Origin: Candidatus Babeliales bacterium
GTDB taxonomy: Bacteria; Babelota; Babeliae; Babelales; JACPOV01
Length of the DNA stretch: 64,000 nt
NCBI GenBank assembly: GCA_050250855.1
Contig: JBFWNW010000002.1
Span: 64,001-128,000 of the forward strand
Direction: 5' to 3'
The notes beneath the pieces were generated by a model, which did no database searches, was not told the origin of the DNA, and was given only the letters and a program-made list of their open reading frames with translations. The stretch's first letter is position 1; every line of letters begins with the position of its first letter. Shown here piece by piece: positions 38,797 through 42,916 of the stretch. The translations under genes and the position numbers were made by a program.

Positions 38797-39462
38797 ATGC
38801 TTAAATTAATGTCGCTGCTACTTTTATTTCAATTAGAATCACCAGAAATAACAGTAAAAAAGGCCAATCACGATAAAGTATTGGAAATCTATCTTGATAT
38901 AGCATTTAAAACTGCCTATGAAAGAGCAGTGAATTATGGATTGTGTGCTTCAAATCTTTCGCATTATATTAAAGATTCACAGGAGATTCCTTCTTTGAAG
39001 TATAATGAGAAAAGAAGCATTATAGATTCTTTACAAAATGAATCTCATCAATATCCTTTTGCTTATATAGCAGGCAAATTTAACTTGGATCATGTAAAAC
39101 TTTCCCGTCTTTATGATGTCATAACCCCCTATGAAATGGCACTGAATTTTTATCTTTATGCTGCTTATACGAAAGGGCTTTTTAGCCGAGAGTATAATCT
39201 TCTTGCAAATATATGGCATTCAAACATACACCATAAAGAAATGATATTTGAATGCTTCAGCGATAAAGAACATAAAAAGATTCAGGCTCGATGCAAAAAG
39301 ATTATTAAAAAAGATTTTCGCCAGCCACTCTACAGTGTGAAGCCAGCCCCTCACAAAAATCCGTATTGGGTTCATCCTCATTCCCCTTATATAGATCACG
39401 GGATTAACCCTCATTCATCATGGGCTAATCATTCAAATATTTATAAATATCAGCCCTTTTAG
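38797..39462 (+). CDS. Hypothetical protein
   Basis: 221-aa ORF with RBS AAGGA and a short hydrophobic N-terminus. Confidence 0.6.
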   Translation: MLKLMSLLLLFQLESPEITVKKANHDKVLEIYLDIAFKTAYERAVNYGLCASNLSHYIKDSQEIPSLKYNEKRSIIDSLQNESHQYPFAYIAGKFNLDHVKLSRLYDVITPYEMALNFYLYAAYTKGLFSREYNLLANIWHSNIHHKEMIFECFSDKEHKKIQARCKKIIKKDFRQPLYSVKPAPHKNPYWVHPHSPYIDHGINPHSSWANHSNIYKYQPF

Positions 39463-39536: not shown

Positions 39537-39544
39537 GCGAAAGA

Positions 39545-41147
39545 ATATTCTTGCTTTTTATATAAAGAATATGATGTACTTTCTATATAAAAAAAAGGAG
39601 AACCATGAAGAATCATTTTAAAAAATTACTATTGTTCGGATTACTCGGTGCAATGCCCACAATTTTTGCTGAGAAAATAAAGCTTGAATCAAGCAATGAC
39701 AAAAAGTTCGAAATCGAAAAAAAAGCCGCAGAACAATCAATAACTATTAAAAACATGTTAGCAGATATAGGTGAAGCAACTGATCAACCAATTCCTTTGC
39801 CCAATATAGATGGAGCAACGTTGGGGCATATGGTAGAATTTCTTACAAACATAGATAAAAATCCGAAAAAATATAAAAATCCTCAAGAACTAATTACTTT
39901 GATTAAAAATAAAAATTTAGATCTTGAAAATCTTATAAAAATAGTTAATGCAACAAATTATCTTGATATACCTACGCTCCTTGATGCTGCAACTACAGTT
40001 TTAGCAGAATATATCAATACCAATCCAAGCAATCTTGAAGAAAAAGTCAAAAAACTTCCTTTAGATATTCTAAAACTTGTTATGCAAAAATTAAATTTTA
40101 AAGAAACACCATTCAAAACACTTATGGAAGATAGATCTGTCACTTCAGTAGCATGGTCACCAGATAGCAAAAAGCTTGCATCAGGCTCAGATGACGGTAT
40201 CATAAAAACATGGGATACCAATACCTGGCAAAAGACACCTCTTAAAGGGCATACATCCTATGTCCATTCAGTAGCATGGTCACCAGATGGCACCAAGCTT
40301 GCATCAGGCTCATATGATGATAAAACCATAAAAATATGGGATGCCAATAACGGGAAAGAGCTCAAAATTCTTAAGGGGCATACAGGCGATATCATTTCAG
40401 TAGCATGGTCACCAGATGGCACTAAGCTTGCATCAGGCTCAAATGACGAGACCATAAAAATATGGGATGCAAAAAACTGGAAAAAGCTCCAAACTCTTAC
40501 GGGGCATGAAGGCGCGATTAATTCAGTAGCATGGTCACCAGATGGCACTAAGCTTGCATCAGGCTCACATGACGAGACCATAAAAATATGGAATGCAAAA
40601 AATGGCACAGAGCTCCAAACCCTTACAGGGCATACAGCTGAGGTCACTTCAGTAGCATGGTCACCAGATGGCACTAAGCTTGCATCAGGCTCACATGACA
40701 AAACCATAAAAATATGGGATGCCAATAACGGGAAAGAGCTCCAAATTCTTAGGGGGCATAAAGATTCTGTCTATTCAGTAGCATGGTCACCAGATGGCAA
40801 AAATCTTGCATCAGGCTCAGATGACAAAACCATAAAAATATGGAATACCAATACCTGGAAAGAGCTCCAAACTCTTACAGGGCATGAAGGCGCGATTAAT
40901 TCAGTAGCATGGTCACCAGATGGCACTAAGCTTGCATCAGGCTCACATGACAAAACTATAAAAATATGGGAACGAGAGTCTGAAATAGGAAAAAAATTAC
41001 AAGAAGTTATAAAAGAAAAAGAAAAAACAACCAAAATCTAAAACAAGAACTGCAGCTGGCAATGCATGAAATTGATTTCTTAAATAAAGAATTACAATCA
41101 TTGCAAAGTGAGCTGGATAGATTGGTAAAAATGCTGGGATAATCTAA
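39545..41147 (+). repeat. Tandem duplication unit 1 (upstream region, Skp1-WD40 gene and tail)
   Basis: Matches 41311-42916 from ATATTCTTGC to GGGATAATCTAA. Confidence 0.9.
39605..41041 (+). CDS. Secreted Skp1-like + F-box-like helix + 7xWD40 protein
   Basis: Signal peptide; IKLESS..KKFEI...QSITIKNML...PIPLPNID...NYLDIPTLLD; LPLDILKLV; seven SVAWSPDG..LASGS..IKIW repeats. Confidence 0.88.
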   Translation: MKNHFKKLLLFGLLGAMPTIFAEKIKLESSNDKKFEIEKKAAEQSITIKNMLADIGEATDQPIPLPNIDGATLGHMVEFLTNIDKNPKKYKNPQELITLIKNKNLDLENLIKIVNATNYLDIPTLLDAATTVLAEYINTNPSNLEEKVKKLPLDILKLVMQKLNFKETPFKTLMEDRSVTSVAWSPDSKKLASGSDDGIIKTWDTNTWQKTPLKGHTSYVHSVAWSPDGTKLASGSYDDKTIKIWDANNGKELKILKGHTGDIISVAWSPDGTKLASGSNDETIKIWDAKNWKKLQTLTGHEGAINSVAWSPDGTKLASGSHDETIKIWNAKNGTELQTLTGHTAEVTSVAWSPDGTKLASGSHDKTIKIWDANNGKELQILRGHKDSVYSVAWSPDGKNLASGSDDKTIKIWNTNTWKELQTLTGHEGAINSVAWSPDGTKLASGSHDKTIKIWERESEIGKKLQEVIKEKEKTTKI

Positions 41148-41185
41148 AAGTTTATCGCAAAATTAGAAACTTTTGCAGTTTTATA

Positions 41186-41302
41186 CTTCGATTCGGGTCA
41201 AAACCCTTGCTCCCGTCGCCCCCAAGGCTACATCGGACACCGCAGGGCGAACGTTTATATTAAAGCCGTTTGTGCTGAGTTTATCCAAGCATTCGAACGG
41301 CA
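41186..41302. repeat. REP-like palindromic element
   Basis: 41266-41302 is a degenerate reverse complement of 47911-47947; CAGGGCGAACG matches the reverse complement of 48031-48041. Confidence 0.7.
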
Positions 41303-41310
41303 GTTAAAGG

Positions 41311-42916
41311 ATATTCTTGCTTTTTATATAAAGAATATGATGTACTTTCTATATAAAAAAAAGGAGAACCATGAAGAATCATTTTAAAAAATTACTATTG
41401 TTCGGATTACTCGGTGCAATGCCTACAATTTTTGCTGAGAAAATAAAGCTTGAATCAAGCGATGACAAAAAGTTCGAAATCGAAAAAAAAGCCGCAGAAC
41501 AATCAATAACTATTAAAAACATGTTAGCAGATATAGGTGAAGCAACTGATCAACCAATTCCTTTGCCCAATATAGATGGAGCAACGTTGGGGCATATGGT
41601 AGAATTTCTTATAAACATAGATAAAAATCCTCAAGAACTAATTACTTTGATTAAAAATAAAAATTTAGATCTTGAAAATCTTATAAAAATAGTTAATGCA
41701 ACAAATTATCTTGATATACCTACGCTCCTTGATGCTGCAACTACAGTTTTAGCAGATCATATTAATGCTACGCAAACAGCTATTAATGATTTTAAAGACA
41801 AACTTCCTTTAGATATACTAAAGCTTCTTGTGCAAAAAATACCAGGAGGAACGTTTAAAGAAACGCCATTCAAAACACTTATGGGGAATACGAACACGGT
41901 CTATTCAGTTGCATGGTCACCAGATGGCACTAAGCTTGCATCAGTCTCAGATCTCAAGACCATAAAAATATGGGATACCAATACCTGGAAAGAGCTCCAA
42001 ACCCTTACAGGGCATACAGCCGCGGTCGATTCAGTAGCATGGTCACCAGATGGCAAAAATCTTGCATCAGGCTCAAGTGACACAACCATAAAAATATGGA
42101 ATACCAATACCTGGAAAGAGCTCCAAACTCTTAAAGGGCATACAGCCGTGGTCACTTCAGTAGCATGGTCACCGGATGGCAAAAAGCTTGCATCAGGTTC
42201 ACATGACAATACCATAAAAATATGGAATACCAATACCTGGAAAGAGCTCCGAACTCTTACAGGGCATACAGCCGTGGTCACTTCAGTAGCATGGTCACCG
42301 GATGGCACTAAGCTTGCATCAGGTTCACATTCACCTGACAATACCATAAAAATATGGGATGCGAATACCTGGAAAGAGCTCCAAACTCTTACAGGGCATA
42401 CAGCCGCGCTCACTTCAGTAGCATGGTCACCAGATGGCACTAAGCTTGCATCAGGTTCAAATGCATATAGCAACAATACCATAAAAATATGGGATACCAA
42501 TACCTGGAAAAAGCTCCGAACTCTTAAGGGGGATACAGCCGCGATCACTTCAGTAGCATGGTCACCAGATGGCAAAAATCTTGCATCAGGCTCAAATGAC
42601 AAAACCATAAAAATATGGAATGCAAAAAATGGCACAGAGCTCCAAACTCTTAAAGGGCATACAGCCGCGGTCGATTCAGTAGCATGGTCACCAGATGGCA
42701 CTAAGCTTGCATCAGGTTCATGGGAGCTAAAAATATGGGAACGAGAGTCTGAAATAGGAAAAAAATTACAAGAAGTTATAAAAGAAAAAGAAAAAACAAC
42801 CAGAACCTAAAACAAGAACTGCAGCTGGCAAGGCATGAAATTGATTTCTTAAATACAGAATTACAATCATTGCAAAGTGAGCTGGATAGATTGGTAAAAA
42901 TGCTGGGATAATCTAA
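41311..42916 (+). repeat. Tandem duplication unit 2
   Basis: Matches 39545-41147. Confidence 0.9.
41371..42810 (+). CDS. Secreted Skp1-like + F-box-like helix + 7xWD40 protein (paralogue)
   Basis: Near-identical N-terminus to 39605-41041; seven WD40 repeats with different variable residues. Confidence 0.88.
   Translation: MKNHFKKLLLFGLLGAMPTIFAEKIKLESSDDKKFEIEKKAAEQSITIKNMLADIGEATDQPIPLPNIDGATLGHMVEFLINIDKNPQELITLIKNKNLDLENLIKIVNATNYLDIPTLLDAATTVLADHINATQTAINDFKDKLPLDILKLLVQKIPGGTFKETPFKTLMGNTNTVYSVAWSPDGTKLASVSDLKTIKIWDTNTWKELQTLTGHTAAVDSVAWSPDGKNLASGSSDTTIKIWNTNTWKELQTLKGHTAVVTSVAWSPDGKKLASGSHDNTIKIWNTNTWKELRTLTGHTAVVTSVAWSPDGTKLASGSHSPDNTIKIWDANTWKELQTLTGHTAALTSVAWSPDGTKLASGSNAYSNNTIKIWDTNTWKKLRTLKGDTAAITSVAWSPDGKNLASGSNDKTIKIWNAKNGTELQTLKGHTAAVDSVAWSPDGTKLASGSWELKIWERESEIGKKLQEVIKEKEKTTRT

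Follow-up and report, generated by a model that had tools for sequence, protein, structure and literature searches.

What use would a bacterium have for genes that join a Skp1-like module to a WD40 propeller in a single chain? The question is raised by two tandem genes, here called gene 1 and gene 2, both on the + strand of a stretch of 64,000 nucleotides from Candidatus Babeliales bacterium (GTDB lineage Bacteria; Babelota; Babeliae; Babelales; JACPOV01; assembly GCA_050250855.1, contig JBFWNW010000002.1, positions 64,001 to 128,000); the whole stretch is termed the window in what follows. A preliminary description, made from the letters alone, had read each product as a signal peptide, a Skp1-like fold, a helix resembling the first helix of an F-box and seven WD40 blades, and had proposed that the proteins mimic SCF (Skp1-cullin-F-box) ubiquitin ligases of eukaryotes. 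Open reading frames (ORFs), Pfam and AlphaFold2 (AF2) agree on these parts, with the signal peptide called by hydrophobicity. The observation is confirmed, and part of its interpretation is borne out: architecture and descent from Skp1 are firm, and a role as a cullin-docking effector is plausible from the sequence. We put at about 0.55 the probability that each gene encodes an exported one-chain mimic of a Cul1 (SCF) substrate receptor.

The Skp1-type module

In both window proteins the N-terminal module matches the Pfam family Skp1_POZ (PF03931) far above the cut-off of 21.9 bits (gene 1, E 1.6e-16, 60.6 bits; gene 2, E 6.6e-18, 65.1 bits), the match covering residues 24–81. A phmmer search of Protein Data Bank (PDB) sequences carries the similarity further. 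It returned 36 sequences at E ≤ 10, of which the best was Dictyostelium Skp1A (6v88, E 1.8e-16); Skp1 chains lie between E 1.8e-16 and 1e-13 (human Skp1 at ∼1e-14), with residues 24–139 aligned, ends falling at 136–140, and 33–38% identity to the solved chains. When a profile of 34 family members was aligned by hhalign to one of 33 presumed eukaryotic Skp1 sequences, labelled eukaryotic from their canonical Skp1 tails (sequence features) only, the result was a 99.85% probability and E 1.4e-30 over 114 columns, residues 25–139. Since the alignment stops at residue 139, Skp1 similarity by sequence ends after helix H6. Beyond it, PF01466, which represents the Skp1 C-terminal helices H7 and H8, has no match in the two window proteins (E ≤ 10) or in 37 relatives (E ≤ 1). 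The preliminary description had placed a Skp1 match at residues ∼24–140 and had it stop before the helices that bind the F-box, and both statements hold.

Two neighbouring identities were tried and rejected. Elongin C, which the preliminary description had offered as an alternative that would lead to Cul2 or Cul5, is disfavoured, at E 0.13 against 1.8e-16 for Skp1 in the same PDB search. A generic BTB domain was set aside for the window proteins, which have no PF00651 match at E ≤ 10; among the 37 relatives three do have one (E 1.3e-5 to 6.3e-3).

Structure prediction adds what sequence comparison cannot see behind residue 139. Modelled alone (residues 22–168, from a 34-row alignment), the module reached a predicted local distance difference test (pLDDT) value of 93.3 and a predicted template modelling (pTM) score of 0.88. 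VIA-align aligned this model to 999 chains, and all 50 among the matches listed were Skp1, with Z 13.1–14.8. Its rows of low root mean square deviation (rmsd, 2.0–3.1 Å) pair model residues 2 to 125–129 with Skp1 residues 2 to 140–141, that is, through H7, and in the rows that reach the end of the model Skp1 residues 146–163 are matched at 3.0–4.5 Å. With Foldseek, rows of at least 138 columns have an rmsd of 7.0–8.7 Å and shorter rows 3.1–5.8 Å, a jump which suggests that the last helix of the model is not where H8 lies in F-box-bound Skp1. In an ESM Atlas model, residues 22–164 (141 residues) align to a 163-aa plant Skp1 model with a template modelling (TM) score of 0.78, so that the module may be, in topology, a whole Skp1 with its two last helices rewritten. 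Judged by its sequence, the module descends from eukaryotic Skp1 and is not a full member of that family, as it has no PF01466 match, is fused to another domain and is predicted to be exported.

A module that keeps helices at the H7 and H8 positions, as the fold comparisons place them, might still bind host or bacterial F-box proteins, as a substitute Skp1 that tethers them or competes with host Skp1. The company the module keeps would allow for this, in that 16 of the 46 genomes in the phylum that bear it also have F-box-like genes, always at separate places. We regard this reading as very improbable. It has against it the failure of PF01466 in the window proteins and relatives alike, a score of only 6.9 (E 0.3) for the tail of the module against a Skp1 H7–H8 profile, the lack of any F-box match in searches of the genome itself, and the propeller, which begins ∼10 residues behind the last helix and would crowd the site of an F-box.

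The LP helix and the F-box question

The core is followed by a short tail that ends in a helix beginning with LP, here called the LP helix ("LPLDILKL" in gene 1, residues 153–162 by DSSP in the AF2 model). Averaged over 10-residue blocks, its pLDDT is 86 and 84 in the full-length model and ∼94 when the module is modelled alone, from which it would appear to belong to the Skp1-like module and not to the propeller. Our own reading of the relatives' sequences points the same way: an LP-type helix also stands behind the module in fusions to leucine-rich repeats (LRR) and to Lcl_C domains, so it goes with the constant module. The ESM Atlas alignment puts it at the topological place of the last helix of Skp1. 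As Skp1 H7/H8 by sequence it was rejected, the tail scoring 6.9–7.1 against the H7–H8 profile.

The preliminary description had taken LPLDILKL for a likeness of F-box helix 1 (H1), and part of this stands. The helix is real in the model and fits the pattern L-P-x-(D/E)-(I/L)-x-x-x-(I/V)-x-x-x-L; as a pattern, the resemblance to H1 is real. What did not follow is recognition by F-box hidden Markov models (HMMs): PF00646 and PF12937 have no match in the two window proteins (E ≤ 10) or the 37 relatives (E ≤ 1). For a more sensitive comparison we used a profile of 29 F-box regions from Babeliales genomes. The best local hhalign match of the family to this profile is the LP helix, in register with H1 (21 columns, E 0.0078, probability 5%), and the tail alone scores 18.6 (probability 53%, E 1.3e-4); 500 column shuffles all stay below 18.8 (mean 5.0, sd 1.3, maximum 12.7). 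Controls score similarly, however, the presumed eukaryotic Skp1 profile reaching 17.4 and the family core 13.1 against 18.6–18.8 for the LP helix.

These numbers bear on where the helix came from, not on what the proteins do. It might be the relic of F-box helix 1, left from the fusion of a Skp1 gene with an F-box/WD40 gene and now filling the groove of the module in cis. The pattern, the register of the family's single best match and a score that beats every shuffle, set beside 6.9 for Skp1 H7–H8, argue for it; the silent F-box HMMs, the nearly equal controls and several features of the family argue against. Only 14 of 34 members have [LM]P at this place, and the other 20 together score 8.5 against the F-box profile. 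No F-box-like match adjoins any Skp1_POZ match in the phylum, and the propeller is of bacterial type, not FBXW-like. The presence of the helix in LRR and Lcl_C fusions, and its position at the last helix of Skp1, likewise tell against an F-box/WD40 parent. An F-box remnant is unproven, and we consider it doubtful.

Propellers, paralogs and the wider family

Behind the LP helix both proteins carry seven stretches matching the Pfam WD40 family PF00400 (E 2.2e-98 in gene 1, 2e-88 in gene 2), and the AF2 model of gene 1 has seven four-stranded blades. The nearest structures found by Foldseek are prokaryotic or designer repetitive propellers (5yzv, 44% identity; 7big, 52%; 2ymu, 51%) and not F-box/WD40 proteins; the TM score normalized by target is 0.98 to 5yzv_B. 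The repeat, 42 residues long, hardly varies across 38 blades from the genome's six paralogs (GHTxxVxSVAWSPDGTKLASGSxDKTIKIW), apart from the hypervariable positions 5, 6, 8 and 24 (entropy 2.9–3.4 bits). Other positions in repeat positions 1–31 have at most ∼1.35 bits, except position 26 (2.2 bits), and the stretch between blades is moderately variable. The four hypervariable positions are, we assume, those that line the top face of a WD40 propeller. Modelled at full length, gene 1 gives pLDDT 90.4 and pTM 0.80, values which suggest a fixed arrangement of the Skp1-like and WD40 domains.

Both ends of the chain differ among family members. At the N terminus, residues 1–22 of gene 1 have a K-rich n-region, a hydrophobic core (Kyte–Doolittle 10-residue maximum 2.47) and the end ...IFA, and AF2 gives residues 1–20 a pLDDT below 50. 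A crude hydrophobicity test finds a signal-like N terminus in both window proteins and in 32 of 34 family members. In relatives such as L008, L015, L017, L022, L033, L036 and L039 the signal-like segment ends (G/A)-M-(D/E/Q), an ending that the window pair does not have, and in many family members a Met is conserved right behind the likely cleavage site. This Met could belong to a phylum-specific cleavage or export motif, or could be a second start that yields a non-exported form. At the C terminus, the charged helix of gene 1 has no hydrophobic tail, in contrast to four paralogs on another contig (C1) of the same genome. A different helical segment, (L/M)-(S/T)-x-(E/Q)-Q-A-x-x-(I/V)-(W/F/Y)-x-Y-L, follows the propeller in many relatives, such as L008, L016, L013, L014, P0057, P0126 and P0106; it matches no Pfam family, is sometimes followed by a transmembrane-like stretch, and is missing from the window pair.

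The genome holds six Skp1-like copies, two in the window and four on contig C1. The latter (genome G000, loci L002–L005) lie head to tail at 471076–475500, the contig ending inside the fourth; they have a hydrophobic C-terminal tail (...LLFFNK), and in place of the motifs PIPLPN and NYLD of the window pair they have PINLPA and NGLD. Skp1_POZ matches are found in 10 of 41 related genomes, in 46 of the 261 that represent the phylum (45 over the Pfam cut-off; 33 of the 189 of good quality), with up to 12 copies per genome, and in none of 14 control genomes. With six copies here and this spread, the module occurs far beyond chance.

Relatives were collected as ORFs that match the family HMM at a domain E ≤ 1e-5, after dropping the duplicates L001, L004, L006 and L003:1-1422 and one weak fragment. 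The N-terminal regions of all 37 match Skp1_POZ at E ≤ 1.2e-3, and 35 reach the cut-off. What follows the module changes from one relative to the next. Of 35 C-terminal parts, 25 were run against Pfam and gave WD40 or other propeller families in 10, LRR in four, ankyrin in two, Peptidase_M48 in one and no family in eight; among the remaining 10, WD40 had already been seen in nine, and L020 was without any family. An exhaustive HMMER search of a protein library with residues 22–170 gave 943 proteins at E ≤ 1e-3; 23 of them reach E ≤ 1e-10, and E ≤ 1e-30 is reached by none. By our own reading, its long matches include signal-peptide proteins with a Skp1-like module and WD40 repeats. Eight library proteins compared with Pfam comprised four with LRR (P0012, P0044, P0064, P0140), two with Lcl_C (P0061, P0118) and two that were Skp1-like only. 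A word-index search with residues 1–170 came back blank among proteins of 262–837 aa, which reflects a limit of the index, as the exhaustive search did find such proteins. The survey of this architecture across genomes that the preliminary description had suggested thus yields a Skp1-like module followed, in the parts examined, by WD40, LRR or ankyrin modules among others.

Some members depart from the one-module, one-receptor plan. Tandem Skp1-like modules occur in L007 (G023), L028 (G072), P0003 and P0008, and P0003 has at least three of them and no receptor domain. The module is joined to Peptidase_M48 in L036 (G185; E 5.1e-9) and to Lcl_C in P0061 and P0118 (E 3.2e-20 and 1.4e-42), neither of which is a classical receptor module of ubiquitin ligases.

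Where source annotations name family proteins at all, they say 'hypothetical protein' or 'WD40 repeat protein'. When a peptide pattern was run against 185,579 species, each represented by one genome, seven loci came back, six in Candidatus Babeliales bacterium and one in an entry titled 'bacterium'; with a single pattern, drawn from a nine-row alignment, the scan does not speak for other phyla.

In a quick tree, built from 67 rows and 120 columns and with 41 of its 64 inner branches unresolved, one branch has a Shimodaira–Hasegawa-like approximate likelihood ratio test (SH-aLRT) value of 98. It parts the 32 presumed eukaryotic rows, joined by a single bacterial row on a long branch (L027), from the other 34 of the 35 bacterial rows. 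Within the bacterial side the genome's six paralogs cluster (SH-aLRT 85), so that the tree does not support the idea that this genome took up a eukaryotic Skp1 recently and separately; it is compatible with one old Skp1 acquisition. F-box-like domains are spread through the phylum as well: the same model that finds none in the window proteins detects them in 59 of the 261 genomes, with 25 matches in one of them (G063).

The features of the two genes are collected in Table 1. Their proteins are 77% identical overall and nearly identical over the first ∼80 residues. Identity at the DNA level begins ∼62 bases 5′ of each ATG, and when 39543–39860 was compared with 41309–41610, three substitutions and one 18-base indel were counted in the initial ∼250 bases of coding sequence; the stretches that encode the propellers have diverged. 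Near-identical 5′ ends with diverged propellers suggest either a recent gene conversion or a 5′ part under strong constraint. Both genes also contain short ORFs on the opposite strand, which are by-products of WD40 repeat periodicity.

Table 1. Positions in the window of the two genes, their upstream regions and their parts
Feature	Position	Strand	Description
Upstream region, gene 1	39543..39604	+	62 bases; AAGGAG ribosome-binding site at ∼39595–39600 (DNA alignment)
Gene 1	39605..41041	+	478 aa; signal peptide, Skp1-like module, LP helix, 7-blade WD40 propeller, C-terminal helix (ORF list, Pfam, AF2)
Predicted Sec-type signal peptide, gene 1	39605..39670	+	Residues 1–22, MKNHFKKLLLFGLLGAMPTIFA; putative cleavage site
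Skp1-homologous core, gene 1	39674..40021	+	Residues 24–139; BTB/POZ fold and H4–H6, PIPLPN, NYLDIPTLLD
Tail of Skp1-like module, gene 1	40022..40096	+	Residues 140–164; H7-like helix 145–148, then LPLDILKLVMQKL helix 151–163
WD40 propeller, gene 1	40115..40972	+	Residues 171–456; seven blades (Pfam, AF2, Foldseek)
C-terminal charged helix, gene 1	40982..41035	+	Residues 460–477 (AF2)
Upstream region, gene 2	41309..41370	+	Same 62 bases and ribosome-binding site as gene 1 (DNA alignment)
Gene 2	41371..42810	+	479 aa; paralog with the same four-part layout (ORF list, Pfam, alignment)
LP helix, gene 2	41803..41841	+	LPLDILKLLVQKI, residues 145–157 (coordinates from translation; aligned to gene 1)
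WD40 propeller, gene 2	41866..42744	+	About residues 166–458 (Pfam, seven stretches; repeat table)

The assembly (1.22 Mb in 11 contigs) has a completeness of 95% and a contamination of 0.48%. Because the flanking ORFs read like ordinary bacterial genes and G+C is even over the window (0.30–0.38), eukaryotic contamination is unlikely. Directly upstream of gene 1, at 38797–39462, lies a 221-aa ORF with a hydrophobic N terminus and no Pfam family. A common upstream partner gene at the two paralog loci was considered and rejected: this ORF and the 205-aa ORF at the C1 array are unrelated (E 51).

Proposed Cul1 docking and the competing readings

The segments by which Skp1 faces the cullin, PLPN and NYLD, had been picked out in the preliminary description, and our motif table finds both intact in the two window proteins, as PIPLPN and as NYLD within NYLDIPTLLD. 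The PxPN motif, in strand B3, is named as involved in Cul1 interaction in the passages of Stogios (2005) that we draw on. As the docking module is of Skp1 type and not of the PF00651 BTB type, Cul1 rather than Cul3 would be the expected partner. With Elongin C set aside as well, and with PxPN and NYLD kept, Cul1 is the partner most consistent with the evidence. Moreover, substrate receptors with one host partner in common would be expected to show, on sequence grounds, just this layout: a constant docking module with swapped receptors, in many copies and predicted to be exported.

The mechanism we propose would run as follows. The constant module would supply the Skp1-derived BTB/POZ core with H4–H6 and the Cul1-contact surface motifs. 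Having lost recognisable F-box-holding C-terminal helices, it would instead have a short turn and the hydrophobic LPxD/E helix packed onto the core, and this helix would lead after ∼10 residues into a rigidly attached, highly repetitive propeller of bacterial type, in which a few hypervariable repeat positions would make the contact with host targets. Once exported by Sec, with cleavage of the signal peptide, and passed into the cytosol of the host cell, the protein would engage host Cul1 at its N-terminal domain through the Skp1-like module, and the propeller would present bound host proteins to Rbx1–E2 for ubiquitination, host Skp1 and F-box being dispensable. The geometry appears to allow this: in SCF complexes the C-terminal helix of Skp1 is described as having the F-box on one side and the F-box protein's receptor domain on the other (in the part of PMC13237083 consulted), so a receptor fused behind the equivalent helix would sit roughly where an F-box protein holds its own. 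These steps beyond the architecture (cleavage, delivery, Cul1 binding, ubiquitination and the identity of targets) we infer from the layout and the motifs.

The same retained motifs would also serve a protein that simply occupies Cul1. In this alternative the module is a decoy or inhibitor that blocks the Skp1 site and shuts down host SCF ligases, the propeller providing localisation or stability; F-box-binding helices that can no longer be recognised fit well, as host F-box proteins could not be recruited through such a module. A plain decoy, however, needs no receptor, and the family has WD40, LRR, ankyrin and Lcl_C domains. The four hypervariable propeller positions and the copies numbering up to 12 per genome point, further, to many different targets. 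We judge a decoy improbable.

Several points weigh against the reading as a Cul1 receptor. A strict PxPN occurs, by our own count, in only 7 of 34 family members and, as the four C1 paralogs have altered both motifs (PINLPA and NGLD), the Cul1-type surface is not uniformly conserved. A Sec signal peptide by itself delivers a protein to the periplasm only. The hydrophobic C-terminal tails of the C1 paralogs and of relatives such as L016 could instead anchor the proteins in the bacterial membrane. Skp1 itself reportedly has roles outside SCF ligases, to go by paper titles, in the synaptonemal complex and in a kinetochore-linked Sgt1–Skp1 complex. In favour of the reading, searches of the genome for Cullin, F-box and F-box-like domains found no match, in line with the statement of the preliminary description that bacteria have no cullins; as these searches matched nothing anywhere and the genome is 95% complete, absence is not proven.

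Most of these points would suit proteins with no part in ubiquitin ligation, in which the Skp1/BTB fold serves as an oligomerisation or docking scaffold (an adhesin or a periplasmic platform, for example) or docks on a non-cullin partner of Skp1. A Sec signal peptide unaccompanied by any known translocation signal would suit such proteins; tails in four C1 paralogs and some relatives, motifs degenerate in many members and the non-SCF roles of Skp1 would all find a place, and Pfam labels PF03931 a 'tetramerisation domain'. This is, in our view, unlikely, though less so than a decoy. The domain is specifically of Skp1 type, PF00651 finding nothing in the window proteins; its partners in the family include WD40 and LRR, the receptor classes that give FBXW and FBXL their names; and relatives in the phylum, in the 59 genomes noted above, encode F-box proteins directed at this same pathway of the host. 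As for passage into the host, portions of two Dependentiae papers (PMC4378268, PMC6561590) take the many repeat proteins with signal peptides to be secreted into the host, perhaps by way of outer-membrane vesicles.

Among known systems, eukaryotic Skp1 (PF03931 and PF01466; 6v88, 1fqv, 1ldk) shares with the window proteins the homologous BTB/POZ core with H4–H6, PxPN and NYLD. They differ from it in having a signal peptide and a fused receptor, in being without PF01466 and in being encoded by a bacterium. The WD40 propeller is the target-binding unit of Cul1 ligases with Cdc4, Fbw7 and beta-TrCP, and F-box/WD40 complexes (1nex, 2ovr, 1p22) are among our Skp1 structure matches. These share a propeller as presumed target binder, whereas the window proteins have neither the three-helix F-box nor the helical linker, and their propellers are nearest to prokaryotic or designer ones (44–52%). 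Plant-parasitic nematodes are said to secrete Skp1-like proteins; these too come from a parasite, but are eukaryotic and stand alone.

The Cul3 adaptors with a BTB domain offer the closest parallel in layout, one chain holding both a cullin-docking module of BTB fold and a receptor. Bacterial examples come from amoeba symbionts, among them BTB-LRR proteins of the Parachlamydia-related UWE25 (in the part of Stogios 2005 consulted) and, in the passages seen, BTB-box and F-box expansions in Parachlamydiaceae (Domman 2014); the window proteins differ in their Skp1-type docking module, which is not PF00651, and in phylum. Bacterial and viral F-box effectors, such as Legionella AnkB, whose structure with human Skp1 has been solved (PDB 5k35, by its title), and the F-box protein described for Babela massiliensis (in the portion of PMC4378268 consulted) likewise hijack the host SCF pathway with a foreign receptor. 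They bring the F-box and depend on host Skp1; in the window proteins it is the Skp1 side that is present, and no F-box can be detected. The statement in the preliminary description that pathogen effectors bring only the F-box was incomplete, as chloroviruses encode a stand-alone Skp1: the PBCV-1 homologue A039L, in the part of a review that we draw on, has the separate ankyrin-repeat partners A682L and A607R. This is again a parasite-encoded Skp1 for SCF mimicry, as a separate protein with separate F-box-like partners where the window has one predicted-exported bacterial chain.

We found no description of a bacterial family of Skp1-domain fusions in the literature searched, which was mostly open-access and did not extend to supplements that may hold PF03931 tables. 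The comparative-genomics paper on TM6 mentions WD40, F-box, LRR and TPR, with no occurrence of POZ, Skp1, cullin, BTB or ubiquitin, and in the Babela paper (PMC4378268) 'Skp1' appears only in the title of a reference.

The reading we prefer, that of exported one-chain Cul1 receptor mimics, can be taken further, more tentatively. Babeliales may have built an F-box-free library of receptors for host Cul1, each made of a Skp1-derived handle, an LP helix that caps its groove in cis and a fast-evolving WD40, LRR or ankyrin domain, and exported into the protist. With the groove capped in cis, host F-box proteins would be unable to compete. Such a library would be the Cul1 counterpart of the BTB–Cul3 adaptors, evolved in a bacterium.

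Known hijacking of cullin-RING ligases uses receptors of F-box, BTB or SOCS-box type placed on a host adaptor, and some giant viruses bring a separate Skp1. The window proteins plausibly belong to this mimicry of cullin-RING ligase parts by parasites, as a single-chain design built on the Skp1 branch. If our reading is correct, a bacterial adaptor in one chain with exchangeable receptors would solve the problem differently, bypassing both host Skp1 and the F-box code. Skp1 could then act as a covalent handle for receptors, and the module would provide a compact natural template (∼145 residues) for recruiting Cul1. For the Dependentiae, it would open an almost unstudied effector biology to direct tests.

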